Shown: positions 3,291 to 42,953, counted from the first letter of the stretch. The stretch is 64,000 nucleotides of DNA from a virus (IMGVR_UViG_3300017589_000080:1-64000), one strand, 5' to 3'. Made by a program: numbers and translations. Notes: generated by a model not told the origin, from the letters alone.

Positions 3291-3665
3291 ATGATAAAAG
3301 TAACAGAATCAACACAAGGGTCTGAAAATTATAACTTTAATATAGGCAAGTACTTTAAGCCATCTGATGATCTATCACAACAAGGTGAGGTGCTCCCTTT
3401 AATAGATGGTAAGTATAAACCATTAGTCTATGAAGAAGACTTTTTAATGGTAACCTTATATGGCGGATCAAGTGCTGGCATGGTAGAAGTAATAGTTGAC
3501 AGAATAAGTGAAGATGATACAGAGTATGGAACTGGTGGTAAATCTATTCCAGTAGCGAAAGCACTTAAGTTCTTTAATGAATTTATTGCAAGATATGAAG
3601 ACAATCCTGAAGATGATGAATTGATTGAAACACTAACTTTTACAGATTTCTTAAAGGAGATATAA
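3291..3665 (+). CDS. putative internal head protein, leader MIKVTE
   Basis: Shared leader; paralogous to the C-terminal half of 7760..8455. Confidence 0.75.
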   Translation: MIKVTESTQGSENYNFNIGKYFKPSDDLSQQGEVLPLIDGKYKPLVYEEDFLMVTLYGGSSAGMVEVIVDRISEDDTEYGTGGKSIPVAKALKFFNEFIARYEDNPEDDELIETLTFTDFLKEI

Positions 3666-3666
3666 A

Positions 3667-4014
3667 ATGATAAAAGTAACAGAAGGATTAACAGGAAAAT
3701 TAACAGATGCAACTGACCTTGATCGACAGTTGTGGGATGCAAATGATTTGCCTTCTGGCAGACCTGCTCAAATCTATGAAGGAAAACGATTTACAGTAAT
3801 TGTATCTACAGAAGAAGGTGTTGGAGACGACTCTGATGTAATTGTTGTATATGCCAGTGATGATCTTGGTGAAGAAGGTTATGCCTTTGGAACTAAAGAA
3901 TTTGGACTTCATGATGAAAAGAAAGCATTGTTGCTTGGATCTAAGATAGCTGAGATGGCTGATAATACAGAGATTGACCACAAACAAATGAATAAAATGT
4001 TTAGACTTTCATAA
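3667..4014 (+). CDS. putative internal head protein, leader MIKVTE
   Basis: Same 22-bp start junction as 3291 and 6758; acidic. Confidence 0.75.
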   Translation: MIKVTEGLTGKLTDATDLDRQLWDANDLPSGRPAQIYEGKRFTVIVSTEEGVGDDSDVIVVYASDDLGEEGYAFGTKEFGLHDEKKALLLGSKIAEMADNTEIDHKQMNKMFRLS

Positions 4015-4042
4015 AATAAATTAAAATTTAAGGAGAAACAAA

Positions 4043-4417
4043 ATGATAAAAAGAGTTAACGAAGCAATTGGTTCTGGAGAACAAGTAAAGTATCCTATAG
4101 ATATTGCACCCTTTCATTCGTTCACTAAGAGTGATCAAATGGGATACCCTGATGCAGGAGGTATTCTTGTAGGTGGGTCAGAATTACCTCCAATAGTCTA
4201 CTATGGCGATGACATGGAAATACTGATTTGTCAAGACTATGATGACAAGTTCAAATGTTGTATGGAAGTACAATTAGAAGAAGATATCTATAGCACAAAT
4301 AATAAAGGAATTCAATTTAAACTAGCAATGTCAATTGCTAAAAAGCTAATTAACATAACAGACTATGAAGACTTAATGGGAGCTCTAGAAAGTTCACGTT
4401 ATCTTGTATTGATGTAA
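4043..4417 (+). CDS. putative internal head protein, leader MIKRVNE
   Basis: SD AAGGAG; leader variant. Confidence 0.7.
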   Translation: MIKRVNEAIGSGEQVKYPIDIAPFHSFTKSDQMGYPDAGGILVGGSELPPIVYYGDDMEILICQDYDDKFKCCMEVQLEEDIYSTNNKGIQFKLAMSIAKKLINITDYEDLMGALESSRYLVLM

Positions 4418-4617
4418 TGGTTAAGGTAGTTGAAAGAAAGCAAGTAACTCATAAACCATTAAACCCTAAGCAGAAGAGACTAATTAGAAAGTTAATCTAT
4501 GGAGACTTTGATGAGATGGTTTATGAGTTACAAGGTACAAGCCTTGAATGGATAATAGATGAAGCCAATTATGACTATGATGAAATTATCTACACAATGC
4601 AAGACTTATTAAGATAA
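4417..4617 (+). CDS. putative internal head protein, leader MVKVVE
   Basis: TAATG coupling; leader variant; acidic C-terminal half. Confidence 0.65.
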   Translation: MVKVVERKQVTHKPLNPKQKRLIRKLIYGDFDEMVYELQGTSLEWIIDEANYDYDEIIYTMQDLLR

Positions 4618-4629
4618 AGGAGAATAAGA

Positions 4630-4929
4630 ATGTATAAAGATCTTATACAAGAAATAAAGGACACAACTTTCCTAAGTGATTATGACTACACTGTTAAAGG
4701 CAACAAACTAATCATAACTCTTGGAGAATATGTAACAACTGAACTCGTTATTGATTTAGAGAATCTTGAAGACAGCATCATAAACTCAAGTTTTGTATAT
4801 CCTGCATTGGAACTAAACAATAATGGAATTGGTGAGTACTTCGACATTGGAAGTGAAATAACCAACACAGCAGGACTAATAAAAGATTTATTCAGTGAGA
4901 TAAAATATATCATAGAAGAATCTGAGTAA
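4630..4929 (+). CDS. acidic hypothetical protein (no clear leader)
   Basis: SD AAGGAG; 99 aa, D/E-rich. Confidence 0.75.
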   Translation: MYKDLIQEIKDTTFLSDYDYTVKGNKLIITLGEYVTTELVIDLENLEDSIINSSFVYPALELNNNGIGEYFDIGSEITNTAGLIKDLFSEIKYIIEESE

Positions 4930-4942
4930 AGGAGAAACTAAA

Positions 4943-5371
4943 ATGATTAAAATTACAAACACAGGATTTGAAGGACGAGAAGAAGCTCTTGGTATGTTGA
5001 GAGAGTTTAATTATGAACTCCGAGACGTTATCGATGACATCTATGAAAAGCTTGTTGACAACGATGATAAATTCCCAAACATAAATGCTGCAATGCATGG
5101 TGAACATGGTGTTAGAAATGGCTGGGATGATGAAGTTAATGATGCTTGCAAAGATATTGCTGAACAGGTGTTAGAAGCAATCTACAATGGCGATCCAGAT
5201 TTTGAGTATGGTGGCTTTGGAGAGATTGTTGACCGTCTTATAAATGAAGATGAGTCTGGGATAGTCAGTGACTTAGAGTATTCTATGTCTGAAGCTGGAG
5301 AACAGGAACAAAAAGAATATGAAGATGAGATGGCTGACTTAAACCATTATTATAACAGTACGAGGTTATAA
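4943..5371 (+). CDS. very acidic protein, leader variant MIKITN
   Basis: SD AAGGAG; strongly D/E-rich. Confidence 0.75.
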   Translation: MIKITNTGFEGREEALGMLREFNYELRDVIDDIYEKLVDNDDKFPNINAAMHGEHGVRNGWDDEVNDACKDIAEQVLEAIYNGDPDFEYGGFGEIVDRLINEDESGIVSDLEYSMSEAGEQEQKEYEDEMADLNHYYNSTRL

Positions 5372-5372
5372 G

Positions 5373-5810
5373 ATGATAAAGATAACTGAAAGTAGTTTCT
5401 CTGTTGGGAGACTTATTCCATTAAGCTTTATTCTTGAACTAATGGAAACCAAGACAGATATCTACAAACACATAAAAAAGAATTACGAGTCAATGGTAGA
5501 AGCTAATACAGATCTATCAATGGCTATTAACTCATGTGTAAGAAGAGGTTCACCAGCCAGACCAGTCTTCAAAGATATGGTAACAGAAGATAAGAAGTTA
5601 TCTCCAGAAAAGAACCTTGTTATAGAAATTAATAATAAGTTCTATGTTATCGAAAAAGATATGTTTGTTGAGAAGTATTCAGCAAGAGATATCATTTCAG
5701 ACTCAGTTATTCCAGATGTTAAAAGATCACCATCTGATAAATACTTCCAGATAATAGACTTATTTAAAGAGAAATATCTGGACAGTCTGGAAAAGAGATA
5801 TACAAAATGA
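5373..5810 (+). CDS. putative internal head protein, leader MIKITE
   Basis: Leader; 145 aa. Confidence 0.7.
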   Translation: MIKITESSFSVGRLIPLSFILELMETKTDIYKHIKKNYESMVEANTDLSMAINSCVRRGSPARPVFKDMVTEDKKLSPEKNLVIEINNKFYVIEKDMFVEKYSARDIISDSVIPDVKRSPSDKYFQIIDLFKEKYLDSLEKRYTK

Positions 5811-6136
5811 TAAGAATATTTGAAGATCTGGAAGTTAATGCATCTGGAAACAATAAAGCTCTTAAAGTTTACAATAACATACTTAGAGTTATAAAAGATA
5901 AAGAAGCAGAGATTGAAGAAGTATCTAATGTTCATACAATTCCTCTTAGCAAAACGAAGGATGGTAAACTTAACATCACATTTGATTATGACTATGATTA
6001 TACTATTCAGATAAACATAGTTAGTGAAGATGAGATAGAGTTAATTTGTCCTAAGGATATGGAAGATGGAACTTTCGATTTAATCTCTGGCGAATATCCA
6101 GAGTATATAAAGAAGATAAAAACCATTACAACATAG
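5807..6136 (+). CDS. putative internal head protein, leader MIRIFE
   Basis: Leader; ATGA overlap. Confidence 0.7.
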   Translation: MIRIFEDLEVNASGNNKALKVYNNILRVIKDKEAEIEEVSNVHTIPLSKTKDGKLNITFDYDYDYTIQINIVSEDEIELICPKDMEDGTFDLISGEYPEYIKKIKTITT

Positions 6137-6150
6137 GAAGGAGAACATAA

Positions 6151-6687
6151 ATGATAAGAATACTTGAAGAACTTGAACTTCCAACAGCTGATCAAGAATT
6201 TACAAGCTCAGAGACAAGCATTAACTCATCAAGATTACCAGCAGTCTTTAAGAAGATACACTTTAATCCTGGAGATATGAATTTGGATTATGGTGGTGGG
6301 AAATTTGATAATGTTGCTGAGTATCTTGAAGAATTTGAAGTTGTTAACTTAGTTTATGACCCATTCAATAGACCATACAAACATAACAGCACTGTCCTTA
6401 AGATGGTAGATGAGAATGGTGGTGCAGACTCTGTAACATGCTCTAATGTTCTGAATGTCATTAAAGAAGAACAAGCAAGAGAAGTCGTTATTAAAAACTG
6501 TTACGACTTGTTAAAGTCTGGTCGCCGAGCATACTTTACAGTTTATGAAGGTAATAGATCTGGAGAAGGCAAGCCAAGCAACAAAGGTTTTCAGTTAAAT
6601 AAGAAGACTGAAGAATATCTCGACGAAATTTCTCAAGTTTTCAGCAGCATCTCTTTAAAAAATAAAGTAATAATTGCTGGAAAGTAA
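6151..6687 (+). CDS. class I SAM-dependent methyltransferase with leader MIRILE
   Basis: Motif I MNLDYGGGK, VYDP, ADSVTCSNVLNVI, then R..VIKNCYDLLK.G..AYFTV. Confidence 0.85.
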   Translation: MIRILEELELPTADQEFTSSETSINSSRLPAVFKKIHFNPGDMNLDYGGGKFDNVAEYLEEFEVVNLVYDPFNRPYKHNSTVLKMVDENGGADSVTCSNVLNVIKEEQAREVVIKNCYDLLKSGRRAYFTVYEGNRSGEGKPSNKGFQLNKKTEEYLDEISQVFSSISLKNKVIIAGK

Positions 6688-6744
6688 GATGTTTCTATTT
6701 GAAGCTAACGTTGTTAATTATGTAAGTCGAAAATAATACTTAAA
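6688..6744 (+). promoter_or_regulatory. conserved intergenic element A, copy 2
   Basis: GATGTTTCTATTTGAAGCTAACGTTGTTAATTATGTAAGTCGAAAATAATACTTAAA. Confidence 0.8.
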
Positions 6745-6757
6745 AGGAGAAATTAAA

Positions 6758-7039
6758 ATGATAAAAGTAACAGAAAAATGGATGGATAATGATACTAAAC
6801 TCTCATCAAGAGAAACTGCTCTGGTGACAAGAGTACATGGTAAAGTAACCATTGGCAAGATATTAAGCACTAAAAATTACACAGACGAGTACTATTGGAC
6901 AAATGTGTTTGATACTTATAGAGAGTTTAATCCATGGATTACTATTGAAGGTGCTGAATTAATGGCAATAGAGATGGTAAAACGGATTAACAAAGATCTA
7001 GAAAACCATTACAATGATCCAATGACTTCGATGTCTTAA
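6758..7039 (+). CDS. putative internal head protein, leader MIKVTE
   Basis: SD AAGGAG; identical 22-bp junction. Confidence 0.75.
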   Translation: MIKVTEKWMDNDTKLSSRETALVTRVHGKVTIGKILSTKNYTDEYYWTNVFDTYREFNPWITIEGAELMAIEMVKRINKDLENHYNDPMTSMS

Positions 7040-7049
7040 GGAGAAAGAA

Positions 7050-7376
7050 ATGATAGATGTAAGAGAAATAAGTTATTCAGACTTTAAAGGTCGGATAGAT
7101 CTTGATAAAGCATTCAATGAGTGCAACCGAATTATCAGGATACATGACAAGCATACAGAAGGAGTAGAATTTAGCTCAGAATGGGATGATGATTTTCCAT
7201 CTTTTGTTATCTGTGCTGTTGGCGGAAGATATGATGGTGTAAGATTAGTACAAGTTACTAACAACTCTTCAAGAGGACTTGATATAAGAGAACTGGTTTT
7301 TGCAGACCATAAAGACAGAAGACTTATTGGTATTGAAAAATTAATGGTAAAAGCTCTCTTAGGACTGGAGAAATAA
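7050..7376 (+). CDS. putative internal head protein, leader variant MIDVRE
   Basis: SD AAGGAG; leader variant. Confidence 0.65.
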   Translation: MIDVREISYSDFKGRIDLDKAFNECNRIIRIHDKHTEGVEFSSEWDDDFPSFVICAVGGRYDGVRLVQVTNNSSRGLDIRELVFADHKDRRLIGIEKLMVKALLGLEK

Positions 7377-7378
7377 TA

Positions 7379-7735
7379 ATGATAAGAATTAATGAATCTG
7401 ACAGTAAGGTGTTCACTGATCCTAAGATGGATAAATTACGGAAGATTATAATTACTAACGGAGAATTATCTGACAAAGGTAATTACACCTTAGATGGTGC
7501 ATTAATGGCATGGTATTCTCCATCAAAAGGAGAAATTGTGGTGATGGATCCAATGTGGGGATACCCAAGATATGTTTATGATGGATCTAAGTTTTACAAG
7601 AAAGCATCTGGTGGTGGTACTGCAACACTTCAGAGAGCAACCTTAATAAAGAACGTGATACAACAGATACGTTATGGCAGGTATGCTAAACTTGATGAAT
7701 TTGATGAAGAAGGTAATGTCATCCAACAATCATAA
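7379..7735 (+). CDS. putative internal head protein, leader MIRINE
   Basis: Leader; 118 aa. Confidence 0.7.
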   Translation: MIRINESDSKVFTDPKMDKLRKIIITNGELSDKGNYTLDGALMAWYSPSKGEIVVMDPMWGYPRYVYDGSKFYKKASGGGTATLQRATLIKNVIQQIRYGRYAKLDEFDEEGNVIQQS

Positions 7736-7759
7736 AAATTTGAATGGAGAAATAAAGAA

Positions 7760-8455
7760 ATGAAAATTATTGATAAAAGTAAGGTTCTTAAAGAAAACTC
7801 TGGTAGCTATGATTTAGTCTCTCGTTTTGAAGAGATAATGTCTGAGATTGCTGATCTTGTTGATGAGGCATATAATATAACATATGCTAGTCAAGATAGT
7901 ATGAATGCAGAAAGATCTAAATCATACTGGTATGCCACAATGCTTGGAAATATTGGTGGCGACTATTCTAATGGATACTCTGGCAGTATGTTTAATATGA
8001 ATGATGTCTTACGAGACATGGAAAATGGTGGAGAAGAATTCGACGATGAGGACTATGATCTAAGACCAGGTTTTGAAGAGTCTAAACAAAGAAGCGTTAA
8101 AATTACTGAGAAAAGTAAAGTTGCTAAAGAAGAATTCAATCCTGAAGAATTCATTGGTTCTGGTATGAGACAACAATTAATAGATGAAGATGGGTTTGTA
8201 GATGATGAAGGTACATTAATTTATGAAAATGACTTTTTACTATTAACAATAACGCCATATAAAAATGGTCTTGTTAATATGGAATTTGACCGTCTTAGTG
8301 AGAATGATGATGTTTATAGCACTGAGAATGGAAAACCTTGGAAATTAATTGATGCATTAAAATTTTGTCATAATTTTGTAAGAAGATATGAAAACGATGA
8401 TTATCCTGAAGAACTTATAGAAGTTCTTGAGTACAACCATATTAAAGCATTATAA
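7760..8455 (+). CDS. two-unit acidic protein with duplicated leader; C-terminal unit paralogous to 3291..3665
   Basis: MKIIDKSKVLKE at the N-terminus and VKITEKSKVAKE internally; LIYENDFL...DRLSEND...ALKF...RYE...ELIE.L shared with 3291. Confidence 0.8.
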   Translation: MKIIDKSKVLKENSGSYDLVSRFEEIMSEIADLVDEAYNITYASQDSMNAERSKSYWYATMLGNIGGDYSNGYSGSMFNMNDVLRDMENGGEEFDDEDYDLRPGFEESKQRSVKITEKSKVAKEEFNPEEFIGSGMRQQLIDEDGFVDDEGTLIYENDFLLLTITPYKNGLVNMEFDRLSENDDVYSTENGKPWKLIDALKFCHNFVRRYENDDYPEELIEVLEYNHIKAL

Positions 8456-8462
8456 TTATTTA

Positions 8463-8515
8463 GCTGTTTTATTATTCTTTTAACGTTGTTAACTGTGTAA
8501 GTCGAAATACTTAAA
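8463..8515 (+). promoter_or_regulatory. conserved intergenic element A, copy 3
   Basis: GCTGTTTTATTATTCTTTTAACGTTGTTAACTGTGTAAGTCGAAATACTTAAA. Confidence 0.8.
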
Positions 8516-8533: not shown

Positions 8534-8683
8534 GTGAACGTTAAAGAAGAAACGAAAGCTTTTAATTGTGAAGGGTGTTTTTATCTTGATCACTTTGAAG
8601 AAATGAAAGAAGACATCTGCTCAAAATGTGTCAAGGAACATGAAGAAAAATCTGCTAAGGATAATGGTGATGATAATGAGTAA
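8534..8683 (+). CDS. small CxxC/CxxC zinc-binding protein (49 aa)
   Basis: SD GGAGG, GTG start; CEGC...CSKC; overlaps ATG 8676; missed by the ORF track. Confidence 0.6.
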   Translation: MNVKEETKAFNCEGCFYLDHFEEMKEDICSKCVKEHEEKSAKDNGDDNE

Positions 8684-9749
8684 GTTTGAACTAAGTATCT
8701 CTAGCAATTATGTTCCTGACTGGACAGTAGTGGATGCAGTAAGAGAGATTTATCAAAATGCTTTAGATGAAGAAGTTCAAAATGATCGGAGTAAATTGGT
8801 GTTTGAGTATGATAAGTTTAATAAAATCATTACAATAACAAACACCAATTCAACTCTTGATATTAGATCTCTTCTTCTTGGTAAAACTGATAAAAGACAG
8901 AACGATGAATTGATTGGTAATCATGGTGAAGGATATAAAATTGCTTCATTGGTTCTTCTAAGACTTGGAAAGACAGTTACAGTCTTCAATGGTGACAAAG
9001 AAGTTTGGAAACCAAGACTTGTAAAGACAAGAAGATTCAAAGGAGAACAGGTTTTAACGTTCTTTACAGAGAGTACCGCTATCAGAGATAACGATGTTAA
9101 GTTCATAATCGGTGGTATCACTGAGTTTGATTATCAAGATATTGTTAAAAGCAATCTCAATCTTCAGGACATACCAGAATCTGATATGAAACATACAGTT
9201 AACGGCACAGTTCTTACAGATGATAAGTACAAAGGTAATCTTTATATCTCAGGCTTATTTGTCTGTCATAATAAAATGTTATCTGGTGGGTATAATTACA
9301 AACCAGGACATATTAAACTTGATCGAGATAGAAGAGTTATCACAGACTTCGATGTCAAGTATGAGACATCAAGAATTATTGCTTCAAGCGATGATAAGGA
9401 TTTTATTGTCTCAATGCTATGTGAAAAAGAATCTGTCTATGTTGGATATCACATGCAGCCAGATATGATACAAGAGGTCTCACAGCATTACTTTGATCTA
9501 TACAATGGATCAGAAACAATTGTAACATCTGACAGCAGTCTACATACAAAATGTTTGAAAGATGGTGTTAAATCTGTCTTGGTGGCTGAAGGTGTATCAG
9601 AGATTCTTAATAAGTCTGACCTCAAATTTAAAGAGTATGTTGAATCCAAGTCAACAAGAGTGATGATGGAAGAGCTAATAAGTAAAATCGAAGATAAGCT
9701 AACTGAAGATGAACTATTGGAAGCTAATCTTATCTTAAGAAGACTATAA
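8676..9749 (+). CDS. GHKL (HSP90-like/HATPase) ATPase
   Basis: N box AVREIYQNALD and G boxes LLLGKTDK...IGNHGEGYKIA; the probable start MSKFELSIS at 8676 overlaps the preceding small ORF. Confidence 0.85.
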   Translation: MSKFELSISSNYVPDWTVVDAVREIYQNALDEEVQNDRSKLVFEYDKFNKIITITNTNSTLDIRSLLLGKTDKRQNDELIGNHGEGYKIASLVLLRLGKTVTVFNGDKEVWKPRLVKTRRFKGEQVLTFFTESTAIRDNDVKFIIGGITEFDYQDIVKSNLNLQDIPESDMKHTVNGTVLTDDKYKGNLYISGLFVCHNKMLSGGYNYKPGHIKLDRDRRVITDFDVKYETSRIIASSDDKDFIVSMLCEKESVYVGYHMQPDMIQEVSQHYFDLYNGSETIVTSDSSLHTKCLKDGVKSVLVAEGVSEILNKSDLKFKEYVESKSTRVMMEELISKIEDKLTEDELLEANLILRRL

Positions 9750-9765: not shown

Positions 9766-11907
9766 ATGAACGAGTTATCAAAAGACATATTATCGAGACT
9801 ATCTCCTGAAGAACATGCATTAACATTAAAGATTCTTAATGAAATGTCTAGTAATGGTAATTCAGATACTCTTAATGCTTTGTACAAAGAGGATTACGAT
9901 GAAATTCCTGTAGACATTGATACTTTTATCTCTGATGAGAAGTATCTTGGTAAGTCTACAAAAGGTGGGACAAGAATCTGGCCATATTGGAGACAAGCTC
10001 AGAGAGAAATCTTTGAACCTGATAAAGATGGTCAGATGAAATTCCAGCAAGTTATCTTAACAGGATCTATCGGGATTGGTAAGAGTCAGAATGCAGTTAT
10101 TGGATTAGCATATGTTCTATATAAGTTGTTATGTTTGAAAGATCCTCAAGAATACTATGAATTAGTTTCTGGATCTGAAATCGTAATAGCTTTCTTTAAT
10201 GCCACCTTGGATTTATCAAGTGGTGTTGGTTTCACATCATTACAGAATATCTTACAGGAATCACCATGGTTTATGGAGAGAGGTAAGATTATTGGAACAA
10301 AGAATAAAGAGTATGTTCCTAATAAGAATATAAGATTTAAAGTTGGTTCACAAGCCAGTCATGGTATTGGACAACATATCTTTGCAGGGATGCTCGATGA
10401 AGTCAACTTCGTTAAAGGATCGAATGTACATGTTGAACAGTCAAAGATAATGGATATCTACTCAGGAGTTCTTGAAAGAATGAAATCTCGATTTATGAGA
10501 AAAGGTAGATTGCCTGGAGTTCTGTTCTTAGTATCTTCAAAGAAATCTGAGCATGACTTTCTTGAAACTTATGTACAGAAACAAAAGCATAGAGAAGATG
10601 TTTATATAGTAGACAAGCCATTATGGGATGTTAAGCCTTCAAGAACATATAGTGGTAAATGGTTCGATTTAGCAGTTGGTAATGTTTATCAACCATCTAA
10701 AATTGTAAATGTTGGAGAAGACTTAGATGCACTGAAGACACAAGGATATGAAATCATACAGGTTCCAATAGAGCATTATGAAGAGTTTGTACTGGATATA
10801 GATAAGGCTTTAATGAATATCGCTGGTATCTCTATCTCACATTACACTCGATTTATCTCTTATGAGAGTATCAGTGGTTGTTATTGTCCTGACAAGAACC
10901 CATTTACTTCAGCAATTCTTGTCATCGGGTTCAAAGATACAATGTCTATTAAGGACTTTTATAAACCGAAACTTGTATCTGAAGAAATCTACACTAAACC
11001 AATATTTATCCACATTGATACATCACTAACAGGTGATATAACTGGTATTGGTGCTGTTGCTGTTATGGGATATAAATATGTAAATCATTATGACATCAAT
11101 GAAGGAACAGTTGTCCCAACGAAAGAAATACTGTATAAACATCTTTTCTCTGTTGGTATAAAAGCACCAGCAGGATCAGAAATATCGTTCCAGAAAACAA
11201 GAGAGTTCATCTATTATCTTAAGTATGTTTTAGAATACAATATTATTGCAACATCTCTAGATGGTTATCAATCTGCAGATAGTAAGCAACAGTTAATTGT
11301 CGCTGGATTTCAAGATTCAACAATTGTATCTCTTGATAGAAAGCCTGACGGATATCTAGTTCTTAAGTCAGCAATGAATGAGAAAAGAATTGCAATGTTA
11401 GATATCCCTGAGCTAGAACTTGAAGCAGTTAATCTTGAAAGAGATAATATAACTGGTAAAGTCGATCATAAGATAGATGGTTCTAAGGATTTAATGGATG
11501 GTCTTGCAGGAGCAATTTATAATGCATCACTGCACGAAGCAAAACTCAACTTATACCAATCAGAATTTGCAGAGTCTTTCATTGAATATAATGATGACAG
11601 TGAAGTCTACGATGTAAGAGAGAATTTATTACACAATCTTACAATAAGTCCAAGAAGACAAGAAGTTGATCTTGTTCTGGATGATGATAAAAGTGAAGAT
11701 GAGGATAAAACTCTGAAAGAGATATTGCAGGAACACATAAAAGATATAAAGAGTGAATCTTTGTTGGAAAATACTAAGAGTCTTACACCAGATGAAATTG
11801 AAAGAATCAAATTTAAGAATTCTAAGAATATGTTTAATGCATTGAAAATAGACAGTAGTACTTTAGAAGATCTTTTTGATGATCCTGACGATTTAATAAT
11901 GATGTAA
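9766..11907 (+). CDS. terL: terminase large subunit
   Basis: Walker A LTGSIGIGKS, Walker B GMLDEVN, LVSSK motif III, RNase H-like nuclease IHIDTSLTGD...SLDGYQS...DHKIDGSKDLMD; acidic C-terminal tail. Confidence 0.93.
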   Translation: MNELSKDILSRLSPEEHALTLKILNEMSSNGNSDTLNALYKEDYDEIPVDIDTFISDEKYLGKSTKGGTRIWPYWRQAQREIFEPDKDGQMKFQQVILTGSIGIGKSQNAVIGLAYVLYKLLCLKDPQEYYELVSGSEIVIAFFNATLDLSSGVGFTSLQNILQESPWFMERGKIIGTKNKEYVPNKNIRFKVGSQASHGIGQHIFAGMLDEVNFVKGSNVHVEQSKIMDIYSGVLERMKSRFMRKGRLPGVLFLVSSKKSEHDFLETYVQKQKHREDVYIVDKPLWDVKPSRTYSGKWFDLAVGNVYQPSKIVNVGEDLDALKTQGYEIIQVPIEHYEEFVLDIDKALMNIAGISISHYTRFISYESISGCYCPDKNPFTSAILVIGFKDTMSIKDFYKPKLVSEEIYTKPIFIHIDTSLTGDITGIGAVAVMGYKYVNHYDINEGTVVPTKEILYKHLFSVGIKAPAGSEISFQKTREFIYYLKYVLEYNIIATSLDGYQSADSKQQLIVAGFQDSTIVSLDRKPDGYLVLKSAMNEKRIAMLDIPELELEAVNLERDNITGKVDHKIDGSKDLMDGLAGAIYNASLHEAKLNLYQSEFAESFIEYNDDSEVYDVRENLLHNLTISPRRQEVDLVLDDDKSEDEDKTLKEILQEHIKDIKSESLLENTKSLTPDEIERIKFKNSKNMFNALKIDSSTLEDLFDDPDDLIMM

Positions 11908-34436: not shown

Positions 34437-36845
34437 ATGGCAAATAATAGATTTAAAACGTTTATTGAGAACATTGGTCAAGGCAATAAGAAGTCAAAAG
34501 ATTCCTTAACGACTCGAAGAATTCGAATCAAAGGTAATCCCTCAAGTCAAGATCATGTTCCAATAGCACGTAAAGGCAGAACTCTTCCAGACTTCCTTGA
34601 AAGTATCGAAGGTTCAAGTCTTGTCGATGTCTCAGAATTAAATCAATTTAGAACAATGTCAAGCGATAGAGAGATTCAATATAAGATCTATGATGAGATG
34701 GCAAGAGATACAATTATCTCCTCTGCATTAGAATTATATTCTGATGATGCAACTCAGTACAATTCAAAAGGTCAGATCGTTTGGGCAGAAGCAGAAGATC
34801 CAGACATCTCAGCATTTGCTAACCGACTTATTGAAATCCTCGATCTTAATAACAATGCATGGTCTCACATTTACACAATGGTTAAATATGGAGATCTGTA
34901 TCTTGAAACTTATCGAGATGATGAAACCGATGAACAATCAATTCTTACAGGAGATCTAAGTTATTCTGATGTTAAAGTACATCGAGAACGAGAAGGATCT
35001 CAAATGGAAGAATATATAGAAGCAGTTAGTAACCCTTCAGACATCTTTGATTTAACAAGTCGAGGAAAGACAGTTGGGTTTATTCGTGTTCCTACAGATG
35101 ACAGAGATTCATTAGAACCACATGCAAGTTATCAATATCTTGGTGATGAAGAGGAGACAGTTGTTCTTAGACCAACCAAGTACATCCATGTCGCCATGTC
35201 CAATGATGTCGATAGATTCCCACAAACTCTTAAGTTACGTTACGTTAAGGATGGAACCACTGATCTCGATGAACAGTACACTCGTTCTTATGTTGTTAGT
35301 CGTGGTAAATCTGTTCTACATAACATTTACAAATCCTACAAAGAACTTTCTCTTATGGAAGATTCTCTTTTATTAAATCGTGTTACTCGTTCTTCAATAA
35401 TAAGACTTCTTCAAATTGAAGTTGGTGACATGCCTAAAGGTAAGATCCGTGAATTGTTAAAACGATTTAAATCACTTATTGAACAGAAGAACTACATGGA
35501 CAAGAATGATGGAACTTATACATCAATGGCAGCTCCAGGTCCAATTGACAATGTTATCTATGTTCCTACTAAGGATGGTAAGGGAGCGATCTCAGCATCT
35601 AACTTAGGTGGCGATGTAGATATTAAGTCGATAGTCGACATTGATTACTTTAAGAACAAAGTGTATGGTGGTCTAAAGATTCCCTCAGCATTCTTAGAAG
35701 GCAAGTGTTTACATCAAAGTGTTGTTCCTGTTCTTCTTGATGGTTCTACTAATAACATTAAAAGCATGTACGAGGACAAGGATGCATTCATTGGTAGAGA
35801 CATTGTAACCTGCTCAATTTCAGGATCAGTTACCTCTTCCAAGATAGTTGATGTACAGAGAACAAGAATCAATGCTAACTTCGTAAGAGTTAACTTAGAC
35901 AATGAGAAGAGCTTCATTGTTACTCCTGATCATCCAGTCATGTTAGACAATGGTATCTTTCTTGAAGCCATCTATCTGTCAGAAGGATTAAAGTTAATGC
36001 CATATTCTACAACAGTAATTGACAATGACTTAATAACTCTTGACAATGAGACTGGTACTTATCTTGATCTTAAGACAGGATCTACTATTCCTTATATTGT
36101 TACTCTTAATGAGGTGTCTACTGCAGTCATGGTAACAAGTGTTGATGTCCTTGACATTATTGAAGATGCCTATGACCTAACAGTTGAAAGTGATAATCAT
36201 ACTTTTGCAATTGACAGTGGTCTCTTTATTCATAACAGTGATGATGGCGGTTTATCTGCAGGAACAGCTTTAACAAAACTTGACTCACGTTATGCCAGAA
36301 CAATTAAGAGAATTCAAAACTCTTATATCATGGGAATAACCACTCTTGTAAATCTCTTTGCATTGGATCGTGGTCTTGATGATCATGTTAATAACTTTGT
36401 AATTAAGATGGTATCTCCTTCAACCATAGAAGACTCAGAACGAGATGAAGTAATGGACAGTCGTATGAACATGATTGGAACCTTTATGGATTTGATAGCT
36501 GATGAGAACATAGTAGACAATACAACAAGGAAAGACATCTTGATGTACTTCGTAAGCAATTTCCTTAATGAACCTGAGATTGCTAAGTTCCTTGCAGAGG
36601 ATACAACGACAGAAATACAAGAAGAAATACCTGAAGAGGGGTCAGAAGAAGATGGCTTCAGTCCTTCAGGTGGAAGCTTCAGTAGTTCTGGGTCTTCTCC
36701 TCCTTCCTCAAGTGGAATTGATGGACCTGCTGAAACAGGTGATGGTTCTGAAGGTGGTGATATCCCTGACAACCTTGGTGCTGATGACAATGGTATAACC
36801 GACAATACAGAGTTTGGAAACTTTGAAGATGAATTTGACAGATAG
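34437..36845 (+). CDS. portal protein (T4 gp20-like) containing an intein
   Basis: YDEMARD.IISSALELYSDDA, MVKYGDLY, MEDSLLLNR...R, IDYFKNK...LKIPSAFL; acidic Gly/Ser-rich tail; SD AAGGAGG. Confidence 0.92.
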   Translation: MANNRFKTFIENIGQGNKKSKDSLTTRRIRIKGNPSSQDHVPIARKGRTLPDFLESIEGSSLVDVSELNQFRTMSSDREIQYKIYDEMARDTIISSALELYSDDATQYNSKGQIVWAEAEDPDISAFANRLIEILDLNNNAWSHIYTMVKYGDLYLETYRDDETDEQSILTGDLSYSDVKVHREREGSQMEEYIEAVSNPSDIFDLTSRGKTVGFIRVPTDDRDSLEPHASYQYLGDEEETVVLRPTKYIHVAMSNDVDRFPQTLKLRYVKDGTTDLDEQYTRSYVVSRGKSVLHNIYKSYKELSLMEDSLLLNRVTRSSIIRLLQIEVGDMPKGKIRELLKRFKSLIEQKNYMDKNDGTYTSMAAPGPIDNVIYVPTKDGKGAISASNLGGDVDIKSIVDIDYFKNKVYGGLKIPSAFLEGKCLHQSVVPVLLDGSTNNIKSMYEDKDAFIGRDIVTCSISGSVTSSKIVDVQRTRINANFVRVNLDNEKSFIVTPDHPVMLDNGIFLEAIYLSEGLKLMPYSTTVIDNDLITLDNETGTYLDLKTGSTIPYIVTLNEVSTAVMVTSVDVLDIIEDAYDLTVESDNHTFAIDSGLFIHNSDDGGLSAGTALTKLDSRYARTIKRIQNSYIMGITTLVNLFALDRGLDDHVNNFVIKMVSPSTIEDSERDEVMDSRMNMIGTFMDLIADENIVDNTTRKDILMYFVSNFLNEPEIAKFLAEDTTTEIQEEIPEEGSEEDGFSPSGGSFSSSGSSPPSSSGIDGPAETGDGSEGGDIPDNLGADDNGITDNTEFGNFEDEFDR
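35706..36236 (+). mobile_element. mini-intein (177 aa, no homing endonuclease) in portal
   Basis: Block A K/CLHQSVVPVLLDG, block B VTPDHPVM, block F AYDLTVESDNHTF, block G LFIHN/S. Confidence 0.93.
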
Positions 36846-37781: not shown

Positions 37782-38078
37782 ATGTCTATTTTAACTATTA
37801 AGGATCTAGAAGAGAGAAGTAAATCTTTACCAAGCTATGTTGATGATATTCTGTTAGCTATTGAAAGTGAGACAGATGCTGTGAAAGAATACGATTCAAT
37901 TTTAGAGATTCCTAATCTTCCGAGTAAGGTACAAGAACTCATAAGAGAGATTAGAGATGATGAGAAAGATCACATGACACTGTTGTCTGCATTACTTTAT
38001 CAGATAACCTCAACAGGACAAATGAACAATGAAGAGGAAGTCAGTGTCAGTGATGAAGATCTGGAGCTTGATTTATGA
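37782..38078 (+). CDS. ferritin-like (two-helix) protein
   Basis: AIESETDAVKEY (ExxA..Y) and IREIRDDEKDH (DExxH). Confidence 0.75.
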   Translation: MSILTIKDLEERSKSLPSYVDDILLAIESETDAVKEYDSILEIPNLPSKVQELIREIRDDEKDHMTLLSALLYQITSTGQMNNEEEVSVSDEDLELDL

Positions 38079-38743
38079 TAAGGGTTTATGAAGGTGTAAA
38101 TGATTATTACTTATATCATTCTACTCCAGCAATAAATGCTATCAGAATAATAACTGATAATAAGTTAATGGCAATTAGAGCCGATGATGAAAAGGCTATT
38201 TCTTTCAGTAGGAATAAGAGAGTTATCTATGGTGACATTGCATTTACTATTGACAGAAGAAAGCTATCACATAACTACAAAATTATTCCTGTCTCAAAAG
38301 GACTTGAACAAGGATACAGATCAGATGGAGATGCAGAGGTTTCCGATGAAGAACGTGTGCTAAGAGATGTCAAAAACTTCTTAAGCTATGTTCTCTCAAT
38401 TGATTTCTGTGCTGCTAAGACTCCTGAGAGAATTATCAGGAAAGCATTATTCACCTCTTCTATTGAAGAGATAACAACTATTACAGATAACTCTAATAAC
38501 AATAAGAGATGTAACAATTTCTATAATCTGTATCTTGTTGTAAATGCTAAAGGAATCCCAGTTGGTAAGAAATTATCAAGCTTATTTAAAGTCCTAGAGG
38601 ATAAGCTAAATGACACTGGCAGTGATGAAGAATGGGTAACTGCTAATACAAGTTATGGTAAGTATAATTCCCCATACGTTCCAGCAAAAAGGAACAAAGG
38701 AAAACCAATACCTAACACTTATGGTGGTGGGGAAGATATTTAA
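38075..38743 (+). CDS. ADP-ribosyltransferase-like protein with leader MIRVYE
   Basis: YLYHST (beta-1), ISFSRN (S-x-S), F.ID..KL...Y.I.P, DEERV (acidic catalytic-loop position). Confidence 0.6.
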   Translation: MIRVYEGVNDYYLYHSTPAINAIRIITDNKLMAIRADDEKAISFSRNKRVIYGDIAFTIDRRKLSHNYKIIPVSKGLEQGYRSDGDAEVSDEERVLRDVKNFLSYVLSIDFCAAKTPERIIRKALFTSSIEEITTITDNSNNNKRCNNFYNLYLVVNAKGIPVGKKLSSLFKVLEDKLNDTGSDEEWVTANTSYGKYNSPYVPAKRNKGKPIPNTYGGGEDI

Positions 38744-38760
38744 TAAGAAAGGTTGATGAG

Positions 38761-39672
38761 ATGATTAGACCATTAAAAGAAAGTGTAGCTGTCAGATACA
38801 GTAAAGTGTATCAGCAAGATGGCTTTAAGTTTAGATACAATTATAAACTTGCTGAGTTAGAAGTGCTTGACGGAACTGAGGTAATTGATTCAATGGGTTT
38901 ATCTTCTGGAGACTGGGATGAAAGTCCTCGATACTGGATAGATCAATACATGAGTAACTTTGAAAGTGAGTTCGACCTTGCTGACTTGGAAGATGAATTT
39001 GGTTACTTGAATGAATCAGAAGAGTTGGAGCCTTTAATCCTCGATGAAGATGACTTTGATGTTGTTGATGGAGATGGCAACCGTCCTCCTGTAAAACGAA
39101 GAGGAATGACAGGTGGGTCAAGAAAAGAAATAGATAACACTTATTATTTCAGAAGTCCACTGATGGTGACAACCACTTCAGACTATGATGACTATGAAGT
39201 TGGAGATGGGTCAGAACTTGTAAACAGAGGAATTGAGAATCAGCTTCTTAATGCTTTATATGATGAGTTTAAAGAACTTGACTTAGCAGAATACATTGAT
39301 GAGAAATACAACAGTGTAATCTATGGTAAGATCAAATCTATCAAAGTTACTGCAGAGTTGACAAGTGATCATCGATCAATGATTGGTGTTGCAGTTGTTG
39401 AAGCTAATGAAGAACTTGATGATGAAACTATCATGGCATTAAAAGAATATATTTCTGGACAGTACTCTGATGGTTGGGGTGAGGGATTCGAACAACGACC
39501 TATTTCAGAATACAATGACACTGTTGAATTTGAGAATGAAGAATACGATGAAGAGACAGGAGAAACTGAGTACAATACAGAATATGAAACAGGTCACTTT
39601 GAAACCTGTGTATCTTTCTGGTATGGTCATGACCAGTTACCAAGATCACCATGGTCATTAAAACTAAGTTAA
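38761..39672 (+). CDS. very acidic multidomain protein with leader MIRPLKE
   Basis: D/E-rich; internal YLNE site; GQYSDGWGEGFEQR motif. Confidence 0.75.
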   Translation: MIRPLKESVAVRYSKVYQQDGFKFRYNYKLAELEVLDGTEVIDSMGLSSGDWDESPRYWIDQYMSNFESEFDLADLEDEFGYLNESEELEPLILDEDDFDVVDGDGNRPPVKRRGMTGGSRKEIDNTYYFRSPLMVTTTSDYDDYEVGDGSELVNRGIENQLLNALYDEFKELDLAEYIDEKYNSVIYGKIKSIKVTAELTSDHRSMIGVAVVEANEELDDETIMALKEYISGQYSDGWGEGFEQRPISEYNDTVEFENEEYDEETGETEYNTEYETGHFETCVSFWYGHDQLPRSPWSLKLS

Positions 39673-39685
39673 GAAAGGGATAACA

Positions 39686-39919
39686 ATGATAAGATTACTT
39701 AAAGAGGAGAGAGCTCCTAAGAGAAAGATAATTAAGAAGTTCAGTTACAAAGGCTTCAAGATTAAACAATACTCTGAAGACACTGATCCAGAGAGTGCTA
39801 AATATGAGTTTGAAGTCTTCACCAAAGATAACCCATATGATGTTGAATGGGAATGTGATAGTCTGAAAGAAGTTCATGAGTTCATTGATTCATGGTCTGC
39901 TGATGATGGTGAATGGTAA
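39686..39919 (+). CDS. putative internal head protein, leader MIRLLKE
   Basis: Leader; directly upstream of the protease. Confidence 0.7.
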   Translation: MIRLLKEERAPKRKIIKKFSYKGFKIKQYSEDTDPESAKYEFEVFTKDNPYDVEWECDSLKEVHEFIDSWSADDGEW

Positions 39920-39965: not shown

Positions 39966-41516
39966 ATGGCAAAGAAAGATAAGATGATTCTTACAGAACG
40001 ACTTGGACCTTTAACTTATGTTAAAGAATCAGGTGAAAGAAATGGTAAAAATTATATTGGTCGACTTGTTGGAGAAGGTTCTAACTTCTTAAAACCTACT
40101 CGTAATGGTAGAAAGTATAATTTGCAGTTATGGGAGAATGTTGAATCTAGTCCTGACTTTATTGAATCAATGGAGACTCTTACATGTTTCGGAGAAGCCG
40201 ATCATCCTGAGACTCGTGCTGACACTTCTATAAAAGAAATTGCAGTAGTATTAACTAAGTTTGAGATAAGAAGACAAGAAGGAATTGTTGCTGTTGAATT
40301 TGATATTCTGGATACTCCTAATGGTCGACTTGTTAAAAGCATTTTAGACTATGGCAGTAAACTTGGTGTTTCAAGCAGAGGTCTTGGCGATGAAATATTT
40401 GTTGATGGTGAAACTTTAATTGACCCAGAAACTTATGAATTTTATGGCTTTGATGTTGTTGTAACACCAGCGGTTAAAAGTGCTCGACCTTCCTTAGTAG
40501 AATCAAAAACTAAGACAGGTTTAGTGGAATCTTTTAATCGAGAAATTAAAGAAGCTTCCTCTTCGAATGAGCTTGAATCAATTCGAAGACTTGCAGAAAC
40601 ATTAAAAATACCAGAGTTAGATTCTATTAAAGAATCTTTGAATAATAAACTTTCTAACTTACCTGCAGGAGATGATATCTCAGAAGGCTTAAAGAAAGAT
40701 CTGGAAGAAGTTATTTTGGAAAATGATCAGTTGCTTAAAGAAAACGAGACTTTAAAAAGCAAGCTATCAGCTAATGATATTAGAGTTAGAAAGCTAGAAG
40801 GCAAGTTAAAAGTAACAATGGTCAAGGGAACAAAGATTCAAAAGAACTTACAAGAATCCCAACTAACTATTGTAAGTCTAGAAGATGAGTTAGTTATTGG
40901 TTCAGAACAGATGAATGAACTCTCAGGAACCAGTGAAAGAAAGATTAAGAAGCTCGAAACTCGTTTAGCATCACTAAGCAGAATTGTCAAGGAAACCAAA
41001 GATGGTCATGAAAAGATTATCAATGAACTTAATAGCAACTATGAAGATGATGTTAAAGAATACCTTACAGAAATTGACAGTCTCAGAATTCGAGTGGACA
41101 GATTAAAAGAATCAAAAGATAATCTTAAATCACAGGTGAAAGTTCTTAATGACTCTCTTGTTAAAGAAACATCTAATAAGAAGTTAATTGAGAAGAAGAT
41201 ACATGAAAAGCATTCGTCCGAAGAGGAAGCCATAAAGAAGCTTCTTGTTACAGAGAATACAATAAAGAGTAAGTACTTAAAAGTTAAATGTGCCCAGTCT
41301 GGTATTAAGCTGGACACTGCAACGGGACTTCTTCCTAAAGAGTACACTGTTGAAGACATTGATAAAATTGTTGGAGATCTAGCTGATAGAAAGTTGAGAC
41401 TTGGGAAACTTCCTGTTGAGATTCGTCCAAGAACAGCAATCTTAAGTGAAGGATTAAGTAACATTACTCCAGAAGAAAAACAAACGATGTCGTTCTTAAC
41501 AGGCAAGATCTTATAA
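39966..41516 (+). CDS. prohead protease (T4 gp21-like) fused to coiled-coil scaffold-like domain
   Basis: NGRKY, FGEADHP (His), ILDTPNG, GVSSRGLG (Ser), FDVVVTPA (Asp); ~330 aa heptad-rich tail. Confidence 0.92.
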   Translation: MAKKDKMILTERLGPLTYVKESGERNGKNYIGRLVGEGSNFLKPTRNGRKYNLQLWENVESSPDFIESMETLTCFGEADHPETRADTSIKEIAVVLTKFEIRRQEGIVAVEFDILDTPNGRLVKSILDYGSKLGVSSRGLGDEIFVDGETLIDPETYEFYGFDVVVTPAVKSARPSLVESKTKTGLVESFNREIKEASSSNELESIRRLAETLKIPELDSIKESLNNKLSNLPAGDDISEGLKKDLEEVILENDQLLKENETLKSKLSANDIRVRKLEGKLKVTMVKGTKIQKNLQESQLTIVSLEDELVIGSEQMNELSGTSERKIKKLETRLASLSRIVKETKDGHEKIINELNSNYEDDVKEYLTEIDSLRIRVDRLKESKDNLKSQVKVLNDSLVKETSNKKLIEKKIHEKHSSEEEAIKKLLVTENTIKSKYLKVKCAQSGIKLDTATGLLPKEYTVEDIDKIVGDLADRKLRLGKLPVEIRPRTAILSEGLSNITPEEKQTMSFLTGKIL

Positions 41517-41567: not shown

Positions 41568-42953
41568 ATGGCAAATACAATTAACCAAAGAACTAAACAA
41601 TTAATTGGTCGTTATGCTAAAAGAATTAGCATGGTTGAAAAAGCACAAGGTTCTCCACTGACATTAGAAAAACGAGCTGTTCTTGCTAACTCCTTACATA
41701 ATGTTTCTCAGCTGGTACAGATGAAAGAAGCAACGAACCCTGGATCCATTGGTCAGTACAAACGATATGCACTTGACATCGTAACTGCCACTGTTCCTAA
41801 CTTGATTGCATTCGATGTAATGTCTGTACAATCTATGGACAATAGAATTGGTATGATCAACTACATGGACTACCAATACTCCAAGGATAAAGGAACCACT
41901 AAAGCTGGTGATGTATTTGCAAGCTCTATCAACATGGGACCTTCCAACCATGAGTATTCCAGTAACCGAGTAACCGATCAAGAAATTGGTTCTGCTGGAC
42001 AAACTGAATATGGTACAACTGCTTTCCCAATCCAATTGAACTGGCATCCAGTAACTCTTGGAACCTTTACTGTTGAAGCTAACGATGGTGCAATTATCGG
42101 TTCTGCCGATCCTGCTACTGGTGTAATTACTGGTATTGGTGTTTCTGGTAAAGTAACCGTTGATGGTCGACTTAACTTGACTTTCACTGCTGGTACTACT
42201 AATCCTCCAGTTATCAACTATGTATTTAACAATGAAGACATCCGTTCTGATGGACCTTTAAACTCTGCTTTCAGTAATGTTCCTGAAGTTGAATTAAAAC
42301 TCAACAGCTTACCAATTACTGCTACTGCACGTACAATGAGAACTTACTGGGCATTCGATGCACAATTCGAGCTTCAGAAAGAATATGGTCAGGACATCGA
42401 AACTCTGTTGGCAACTCAGTCAACTGGTGAGTTAGCACATGAAATCGATACTGAATTAACTCTTGACCTGTTACACTTCGCCAATGCTGGTACTCCTCAA
42501 GTTTGGTCAAAAGCCATGACTCCTGGGATTGCATTAGTCGATCATTATGACAGCTTCAATGCTAAAGTAGTTGAAGGTGCCAATGTTATCTTTGGTGCTA
42601 CTCGTAAAGTAAAAGCTAATTTCATGGTCTGCGGACTTGAAGTTGCTGGTATCATCGAGATCATGAGAAACTTTACTGCTTCTGGTGTAACTGCTGTTGG
42701 TCCACATTTCCTTGGTACTCTTGGAACCTTAAAAGTGTATGTCAATCCTGATTACCCATCACGTGAATATGTACTTGGTTACAAAGGTGCAAACATGTTT
42801 GATGCTGGTGCTTTCTACTGTCCTTATATGCCAATCAGTTCTACTGATTTAATCATGGATGCAAACTTCCGAGGTCAACGTGGCTGGGCAACAATGTATG
42901 GTAAGAAATTCCTTAACAGCAAAATGTACTTACGAGGTTCCATTACTGACTAA
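41568..42953 (+). CDS. major capsid protein (T4 gp23-like)
   Basis: PNLIAFDVMSVQSM, ITATARTMR..W......L...YG.D.E, EID.E, YKG....DAG.FYCPY.P. Confidence 0.95.
   Translation: MANTINQRTKQLIGRYAKRISMVEKAQGSPLTLEKRAVLANSLHNVSQLVQMKEATNPGSIGQYKRYALDIVTATVPNLIAFDVMSVQSMDNRIGMINYMDYQYSKDKGTTKAGDVFASSINMGPSNHEYSSNRVTDQEIGSAGQTEYGTTAFPIQLNWHPVTLGTFTVEANDGAIIGSADPATGVITGIGVSGKVTVDGRLNLTFTAGTTNPPVINYVFNNEDIRSDGPLNSAFSNVPEVELKLNSLPITATARTMRTYWAFDAQFELQKEYGQDIETLLATQSTGELAHEIDTELTLDLLHFANAGTPQVWSKAMTPGIALVDHYDSFNAKVVEGANVIFGATRKVKANFMVCGLEVAGIIEIMRNFTASGVTAVGPHFLGTLGTLKVYVNPDYPSREYVLGYKGANMFDAGAFYCPYMPISSTDLIMDANFRGQRGWATMYGKKFLNSKMYLRGSITD

Follow-up and report, generated by a model that had tools for sequence, protein, structure and literature searches.

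Virus record IMGVR_UViG_3300017589_000080 of IMG/VR (75,011 bp, linear, CheckV completeness 62%) carries a run of 13 small, closely spaced genes, most with good ribosome-binding sites, whose products for the most part begin with variants of one short leader peptide. The window analyzed here is the first 64 kb of this record (64,000 nucleotides), in which the run occupies positions 3291-8455; nearly all genes of the contig lie on the plus strand.

The leader can be described by the strict pattern M-[IV]-[KRD]-x(2,3)-E (^M[IV][KRD].{2,3}E), which fits ten of the 13 array genes, with MIKVTE used three times and seven other forms once each (Table 1). The remaining three (genes are named here by their start positions) are 7760, with the long form MKIIDKSKVLKE; 4943, with MIKITN; and 4630, with MYKDLIQE, where I-Q-E ends at residue 8. 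The strict pattern returns in three genes that lie between the portal and the prohead protease. The last residue (P1) is Glu in the 13 strict leaders and in the long form alike, with Ile, Val, or Leu two places before it (P3) and a free P2. An earlier note on this DNA had put the leader on 11 of the 13 array genes, which corresponds to our ten strict cases plus the long form, the MIKITN variant on one more, and three further leaders (MIRVYE at 38075, MIRPLKE at 38761, MIRLLKE at 39686) just upstream of the protease gene, with none on the tail genes or on the genes at 1-3 kb. Every one of these N-termini is where that note had it, and the absences are borne out, for genes up to 3.2 kb.

The two strands of the 75-kb contig together have 3,188 ATG triplets; the strict pattern follows only 17 of them, and 14 of those 17 are real gene starts. 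Counted by gene, 13 of the 16 members of the two clusters have a strict leader, against one of 85 genes elsewhere (Fisher p = 9e-13, for a motif defined post hoc), a contrast far too large for the post hoc choice of motif to matter; the motif is clearly not, as the earlier note had considered it might be, equally common in the rest of the contig. Altogether there are at least 14 strict tags and three variants within 62% of a genome. The sole strict leader outside both clusters, MIKVINEE, starts a 113-aa gene on the minus strand (72035-71694, outside the window) that belongs to a minus-strand block of small Cys-rich genes.

Behind their leaders the tagged proteins have no Pfam or PHROG family in common. 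The claim that their bodies are unrelated save for one paralog pair stands as to the one clear pair, gene 3291 and the C-terminal half of 7760 (E = 3e-14 in all-against-all BLASTP), and has to be loosened for two faint links at E = 1e-3 each, from 3291 to 3667 and from 38761 to the N-terminal part of 7760. Gene 7760 also has the leader again inside the protein, as a near-copy, VKITEKSKVAKEE (residues 113-125), just ahead of the domain paralogous to gene 3291, and is therefore apparently a fusion of two tagged modules; it would give two cargo proteins if the protease cut at the internal copy. PHROG and Pfam yield nothing usable for 12 of the 13 array proteins, and gene 3291 finds no homolog among 5.8 billion proteins. 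ESM Atlas hits for genes 7760 and 5373 are low-scoring and mutually inconsistent, and the models are of low confidence. A megablast of the array against 50,697 phage records gives no match, and IMG/VR scans with single queries (the gene at 8670-9749, and the protease) find no relatives.

A 27-nt intergenic direct repeat, TAACGTTGTTAAyTrTGTAAGTCGAAA, occurs at 6706-6732 and 8481-8507 (93% identical), after genes 6151 and 7760, and could divide the array as a regulatory or transcript-end element.

Table 1. Array genes and head-module genes in the window, with leader peptides where present.
Feature	Position	Strand	Description
Candidate cargo gene 1	3291..3665	+	124 aa, MIKVTE, pI 4.2; paralog of 7760 C-terminal half
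Candidate cargo gene 2	3667..4014	+	115 aa, MIKVTE, acidic; faintly similar to gene 1
Candidate cargo gene 3	4043..4417	+	124 aa, 7-residue leader MIKRVNE
Candidate cargo gene 4	4417..4617	+	66 aa, MVKVVE
Array gene 5	4630..4929	+	99 aa, without strict leader; MYKDLIQE, possible variant
Array gene 6	4943..5371	+	142 aa, variant MIKITN (Asn for Glu), net charge -27
Candidate cargo gene 7	5373..5810	+	145 aa, MIKITE, pI 8.5
Candidate cargo gene 8	5807..6136	+	109 aa, MIRIFE
Candidate cargo gene 9	6151..6687	+	178 aa, MIRILE, then class I S-adenosylmethionine (SAM)-methyltransferase-like core
Candidate cargo gene 10	6758..7039	+	93 aa, MIKVTE
Candidate cargo gene 11	7050..7376	+	108 aa, MIDVRE
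Candidate cargo gene 12	7379..7735	+	118 aa, MIRINE, pI 8.75
Candidate cargo gene 13	7760..8455	+	231 aa, long leader MKIIDKSKVLKE
Portal	34437..36845	+	Portal_T4 (PF07230), 5.9e-53; intein-like insert inside
Head-module gene	38075..38743	+	222 aa, MIRVYE, then probable ADP-ribosyltransferase (ART)-superfamily fold
Head-module gene	38761..39672	+	303 aa, MIRPLKE, very acidic
Head-module gene	39686..39919	+	77 aa, MIRLLKE, in the position of T4 gp67/gp68
Prohead protease	39966..41516	+	516 aa, Peptidase_S77 (gp21-like) N-terminus, coiled-coil scaffold-like tail
Major capsid protein	41568..42953	+	Gp23 (PF07068), 1.8e-48; PHROG 138 also matched in head module

A T4-type head module

A gp20-type portal, a gp21-type (S77) protease, and a gp23-type capsid protein are all present in the window. 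The protease matches PHROG 207 (head maturation protease) at E = 2.7e-28. Its catalytic His80 and Ser136 (in GE.xHP and GVSSRG) do not vary when it is aligned with T4 gp21 and three more homologs, and its N-terminus, MAKKDKMILTE, aligns with the MNEPQLLIE of T4 gp21. Because a long coiled coil continues after the Peptidase_S77 part, the protein reads as a protease-scaffold fusion. In the capsid protein, a candidate maturation site ...VQMKE/ATNP, for cutting after residue 54, precedes a Gp23 domain that begins at residue 62; the QMKE/ATNP site to which the earlier note had pointed is thus there, at residues 50-58. The cultured phages nearest by capsid protein are Bacillus phage HSE3 (43%), Listeria phage LIS04, Streptococcus phage GXN1, and Bacillus phage SP-15, from which the host is probably a Firmicute.

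The gene order in T4 is 20-67-68-21-22-23, with genes 67 and 68 between portal and protease, and genes 38075, 38761, and 39686 hold that same place. Within the portal gene the Portal_T4 match is split in two, and Pfam Intein_splicing matches residues 432-600 at 29.7 bits, below its cut-off of 35.8.

Homologs with and without the leader

Internal proteins of T4 carry a 10-residue capsid-targeting sequence (CTS), MKTYQEFIAE, which takes them, or a foreign protein fused to it, into the prohead core and is then clipped off (PMC8442874). The methyltransferase-like product of gene 6151 allows the leader to be compared with this sequence on a single protein family. Its own sequence has no Pfam match at E <= 0.01 and only a PHROG match, to family 14016 (unknown function, 4e-10), but hundreds of homologs exist at 55-66% identity, and most of these have a precomputed match to PF13489 (Methyltransf_23). 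A hydrophobic-x-E triplet ends exactly at residue 6 or 7 in 52 of 119 retrieved homologs, on a background of about 2-5 per position. The leaders form two classes, M-I-[RK]-[IL]-x-E and M-[RK]-F-[KR]-L-x-E (the MIRILE and MRFKLVE types). Between leader and the conserved core motif TSIN there are anywhere from 13 to 135 residues, so the tag goes with the N-terminus rather than with the enzyme; on this evidence the alignments show an anchoring to the protein's start, independent of the cargo core.

Homologs in cultured phages come only from KVP40-like, T4-type vibriophages. KVP40.0066 begins MKQFCNFLAE, followed directly by the conserved methyltransferase core, and the arrangement of MK.F..FL.E directly ahead of the core is found in this protein and in 13 IMG/VR homologs, so that CTS-bearing members of the family come from KVP40-like and from other gp23-type phages. 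The strict T4-CTS DNA pattern matches the KVP40 genome (245 kb) once, at the KVP40.0066 gene itself. The alignments thereby show homologs in which a canonical T4-type CTS replaces the short leader; the T4-type consensus is seen on these homologs in other phages and on no protein of the phage described here.

Scanning IMG/VR with an alignment of the methyltransferase family gave 69 loci, and head genes were searched for in the records of 50 of them. Among those 50, the T4-type CTS (MK.F..FL.E) is present in 14, no leader in 16, and other leaders or N-terminal extensions in 16, and in four the enzyme is part of a giant protein. In records at least 75% complete, Gp23 is found in 13 of 15 with a leader-bearing copy vs one of eight with a leaderless copy (Fisher 0.001), and in records at least 50% complete in 17 of 19 vs one of ten, by statistics that ignore phylogeny; S77 follows the same pattern. 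All three leader types occur in gp23/S77 phages, and the bare enzyme is found elsewhere. One family in which members have no leader, a T4-type CTS, or a short leader is a ready-made experimental design.

One of the two leader-bearing, Gp23-negative exceptions, IMGVR_UViG_3300031555_003048 (66 kb), seemed to offer a counter-example, since it has 14 tagged genes but no gp23 and CheckV puts its completeness at 91%. It was rejected as a fragment with replication genes only: it encodes NrdD, PolA, a clamp loader, DnaB, UvrD, RecA, and primase, with a tagged-gene array at one end, and among its ten largest open reading frames, almost all for replication or nucleotide metabolism, no gp23, S77, or other structural-looking gene was seen. 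CheckV completeness is misleading for its clade. The four giant proteins (L038-L041, 2,283-2,689 aa) have the methyltransferase core inside them and come from small IMG/VR phages of about 40 kb without gp23; they are reminiscent of large internal or ejection proteins.

Related arrays occur in one JGI sample (L004/L008, 78 kb; L009, 11 kb) and in the IMG/VR records L023, L027, and L035. Their start peptides include MIKIVNE, MIKIIKE, MIKIINE, MKLRINE, MIIKE, and MKLIFE, and among their products are a Tad6-family protein and a DUF3175 protein. The Tad6-family gene of L004 (PF25188, 10549-10812) starts MIKIID and sits within the run of leader genes, adjoining a methyltransferase homolog. A looser pattern shows no enrichment: a hydrophobic-x-E triplet ending at residues 5-8 occurs in 9.5% of all 2,083 open reading frames from the 69 IMG/VR loci vs 7.6-11.2% at shifted positions. 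Information lies only in the specific leaders of particular arrays.

The 38075 protein gives a second family, of 52 proteins including the query in an exhaustive HMMER search. Y14, H15, and E92 are invariant in 35 homologs, and a hydrophobic-x-E triplet stands about 5-6 residues before the LYH core in 35 of 42 N-termini that could be anchored, at 4.8 times its density in the remaining protein. An AlphaFold model (mean predicted local distance difference test score, pLDDT, 82.6) has residues 1-7 below 50 and a fold that begins at residue 12, which leaves the leader disordered and places it outside the domain. Among solved folds Foldseek puts DarT and Tpt1 first; the probability is about 1, but the E value is 4e-3 and the template-modeling (TM) score about 0.36. 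Pfam Tox-ART-HYD1 gives partial matches, to the large homologs only. The protein is probably an ART-superfamily enzyme (candidate clade H-Y-E, DarT/Tpt1-like), an assignment of moderate strength, and it would parallel in function the packaged Alt of T4. The same ...x-E-[GAS] site also precedes internal copies of the ART-like domain in proteins of 1,200-2,290 aa (P0245, 1,200 aa; P0246, 2,290 aa), which may be polyproteins that a head protease cuts into modules. The C-terminal domain of the 38761 protein is widespread in non-phage proteins that have no leader (two matches are named Bengtsoniella intestinalis and uncultured Dorea), and the versions in related phage contigs begin MIKIIGE and MIKTLKE.

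Likeness to T4 and alternative explanations

The array and its head module resemble the T4 internal-protein system in several respects. An N-terminal tag with a hydrophobic-x-Glu end is attached to unrelated proteins in a phage with gp20, gp21, and gp23 homologs, the cargo set is polymorphic, a probable ART-fold protein is among the tagged genes, in parallel to Alt of T4, and one cargo family carries a true T4-type CTS in KVP40-like phages. In T4, gp21 cleaves after the Glu of L/I-x-E (PMC9026906), and all 13 strict leaders and the long form end in a motif of this gp21 type, with comparable sites at the start of the protease itself and in the capsid protein. There are also differences. The leader consensus here is MI[KR][IV]xE, of 6-7 residues, and does not resemble the T4 CTS consensus of about ten (MK.[YF]..F[IL].E; MKTYQEFIAE in T4 itself); at least 14 genes are tagged on a 62%-complete contig, where T4 has about half a dozen; acidic proteins predominate in the cargo rather than basic ones, the protease appears fused to a scaffold, and the host is probably a Firmicute.

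The earlier description of the leader as much shorter than T4's is right against the 10-residue CTS but needs qualifying because T4 gp67 and gp68 begin MEGLIE and MLLIPE (in the same T4 record, gp24 begins MAKINELLRE, gp21 MNEPQLLIE, and gp22 MLKEQLIAE). The gp67 and gp68 genes of T4, whose products gp21 cleaves (PMC9026906), are like genes 38075-39686 in being small genes between portal and protease with 6-residue starts ending in hydrophobic-x-E. They differ in that no sequence similarity was detected between the two sets, and in being short scaffold-like peptides where this phage has a probable, enzyme-like ART fold and a 303-aa acidic protein. In the giant phages phiKZ, 201phi2-1, and SPN3US many varied head proteins are likewise processed after Glu, by a diverged gp21 homolog, and large cargo is ejected (PMC9026906), but the motif is S/A-x-E, the propeptides are long and heterogeneous with no short common tag, and capsid and genome are much larger. 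The Dar antirestriction proteins of phage P1 are anti-defense proteins that travel inside the head and reach the cell along with the DNA, but they are incorporated through an ordered protein-protein hierarchy rather than by a common cleavable N-terminal tag, and into another type of head. Our literature search found the T4, phiKZ, and SPN3US background and no paper on the short leader, although its coverage was incomplete and such a paper may exist.

It would appear, then, that the leader is probably a shortened, lineage-specific equivalent of the T4 CTS, placed on a large exchangeable set of cargo proteins. In its consensus form M-[IV]-[KR]-[IVL]-x-E and in its longer variants, it would likely be a modular N-terminal propeptide that works as the CTS does. 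The leader would draw unrelated proteins into a prohead core built around the protease-scaffold fusion, the gp21-type serine protease would cut it off after the Glu of [IVL]-x-E, and the mature proteins would be kept inside the head until they go into the host together with the DNA; we infer core binding, cleavage, retention in the head, and injection from the T4 analogy. On the same footing, the array at 3.3-8.5 kb is best taken as a cassette of tagged cargo genes, with a SAM-methyltransferase-like protein among them. The earlier note had proposed a cleavable leader that loads effectors into the head. What upholds that proposal is the T4-type head genes, the [IVL]-x-E ending, the CTS-bearing homologs, and the co-occurrence with gp23 and S77; packaging, cleavage, and injection come into it by analogy.

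Several observations weigh against this interpretation. The internal proteins of T4 are highly basic, and 12 of the 16 tagged proteins are acidic (pI 4.0-5.3), with one more at pI 5.6 and only three above pI 8, so that a profile of small basic internal-protein-type cargo is not what is found. The T4 CTS requires its 10 residues and has its targeting determinants at positions 4 and 7 (PMC9026906); a 6-residue tag leaves little room for targeting and cleavage as separate functions. Some relatives tag about half of the genes in a 10-kb block, which is many proteins for one head. The Peptidase_S77 (PF03420) match to the protease, at 28.2 bits, barely exceeds the cut-off of 27, and few independent lineages stand behind the co-occurrence with Gp23. 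The nearest cultured phages HSE3, LIS04, and GXN1, which have S77 proteases, were scanned and have no MI[KR][IV]xE leader, so the tag consensus is lineage-specific. Finally, codon 2 is ATA in 11 of 13 leaders vs 30% of Ile codons genome-wide (p = 7e-5), which means some DNA-level conservation or recent copying of 5' ends.

There are other ways to account for such a leader. It could be a cleavable propeptide, or a tag for some other common partner, with no packaging involved, for example as a timing switch that keeps enzymes inactive until late infection, when the prohead protease becomes active. The [IVL]-x-E ending fits cleavage, the sequence itself gives no sign of capsid retention, acidic cargo and the large number of tagged genes in relatives fit poorly with co-packaging beside DNA, and phage proteases are reported in a preprint to act on non-capsid substrates (PMC12991175). 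We still regard this explanation as unlikely. Selection acts on more than a cut site, since conservation covers positions 2-4 (I, K/R, I/V) along with the cleavage triplet; homologs have, in the place of the leader, the packaging tag that experiments defined in T4; and T4 gp21 acts on prohead core components (PMC9026906). A tag recognized by a modifying enzyme encoded elsewhere in the genome, such as a radical-SAM maturase, is far less probable again. The array of the relative L004 does have a radical-SAM gene some 750 bp ahead of its first tagged gene, but the 75-kb contig (about 62% complete) has no radical-SAM domain, and a small gene directly after the NrdD-family gene of IMGVR_UViG_3300031555_003048 is, on the simplest reading, a putative anaerobic ribonucleotide reductase activase.

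The ATA bias also raises the question of whether the peptide or the DNA is under selection. The leader might be the by-product of an RNA- or translation-level feature, an A-rich, weakly structured start acting as a translational ramp or a repressor operator: codons 2-7 are 54% A in the leader genes vs 42% in other genes, and three leaders are identical over 18 nt, with likeness that reaches into the ribosome-binding site. It might also be functionless as a peptide if the ribosome-binding site and leader, about 30 nt together, were recombination handles for cassette swapping or relics of serial duplication. Several gene starts do have direct repeats of 30-35 nt (74-87% identity) that cover ribosome-binding site and leader only; the one paralog pair, the two faint links, and the ATA bias would fit; and module shuffling at conserved intergenic motifs is known from T4-like phages (PMC4122927). 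Conservation is codon-periodic and by residue class (P3 I/V/L, P2 free, P1 Glu), which speaks against the first idea, and both ideas meet the difficulty that relatives keep the peptide (MIKIVNE, MIKIINE, MIKVIE, and others), in homologs at 55-60% identity and across phages, with synonymous codons varying freely (ATA/ATT/ATC, GAA/GAG, AAA/AAG, AAT/AAC). Selection is therefore on the peptide and not on the DNA, as judged from the codons. A translation-level feature is quite improbable in view also of the interchange, on one protein family, of leaders as unlike in length and sequence as MIRILE, MRFKLVE, and MK.F..FL.E, the same Glu site ahead of internal domain copies far from any start codon, and the lack of the motif in the other 85 genes (strict count 1/85), highly expressed structural genes included. 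The handle explanation, which we rate slightly lower still, leaves the invariant Glu, the match to the protease rule, and the gp23/S77 link unexplained; recombination there could well bring a further advantage, yet not be what keeps the leader conserved. None of these rivals explains the swap for a canonical CTS together with the gp23/S77 link.

Neighboring genes and wider meaning

Elsewhere in the window, a 359-aa protein of a conserved phage family (8670-9749; PHROG 6077, E = 4e-71) is encoded between the array and a putative large terminase (9766-11907), which has a weak PHROG match only and no Pfam match. Two pairs of large tail-fiber-like genes, 14459/15593 and 19936/29166, have N-termini that are alike (MAKATGQITI/MARATGQITI and MAYNEQWTNTGW/MAYNEQWTDTGW), which suggests duplicated receptor-binding proteins with a common attachment domain.

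The principle of loading proteins into the head by a cleaved tag is textbook knowledge for T4, and T-even phages are known to have polymorphic loci for diverse internal proteins with only the CTS in common (PMC3012670). Because such polymorphic, CTS-only cargo is already published, we consider that the array described here extends a known system rather than being a new one. New are the 6-7-residue consensus, the scale, the acidic and enzyme-rich cargo, and an apparent spread through uncultured gp23-type phages of Gram-positive hosts.

A broader reading, which we offer tentatively, is that uncultured phages of the gp23/gp21 type, with genomes of about 100-270 kb and Firmicutes as their probable hosts, form a large clade that may preload dozens of exchangeable enzymes and anti-defense proteins by means of lineage-specific "zip codes" of 6-7 residues (MIKVTE, MIKIVNE, MKLRINE, MRFKLVE). 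Their cargo might include methyltransferases, DarT-like ARTs, and Tad6-family sponges, so that the genome would be escorted into the cell by its own counter-defense. The tagged arrays would in that case serve as a hold whose cargo can be swapped, and the tag as a minimal signal for packaging, portable enough for use in engineering. If the tag works in the way proposed for this phage, its six residues would make a very compact means of putting foreign proteins into phage heads. Many small ORFans of metagenomic phages would move from the category of "early accessory genes" to that of virion cargo, and some anti-defense proteins (a methylase, an ART, a Tad6-like sponge) would be at work before the phage expresses any of its genes. 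The internal-protein strategy of T4 would then not be peculiar to the T-even coliphages, but a widespread and much enlarged means by which phages of Gram-positive anaerobes send proteins into the cell along with their DNA.

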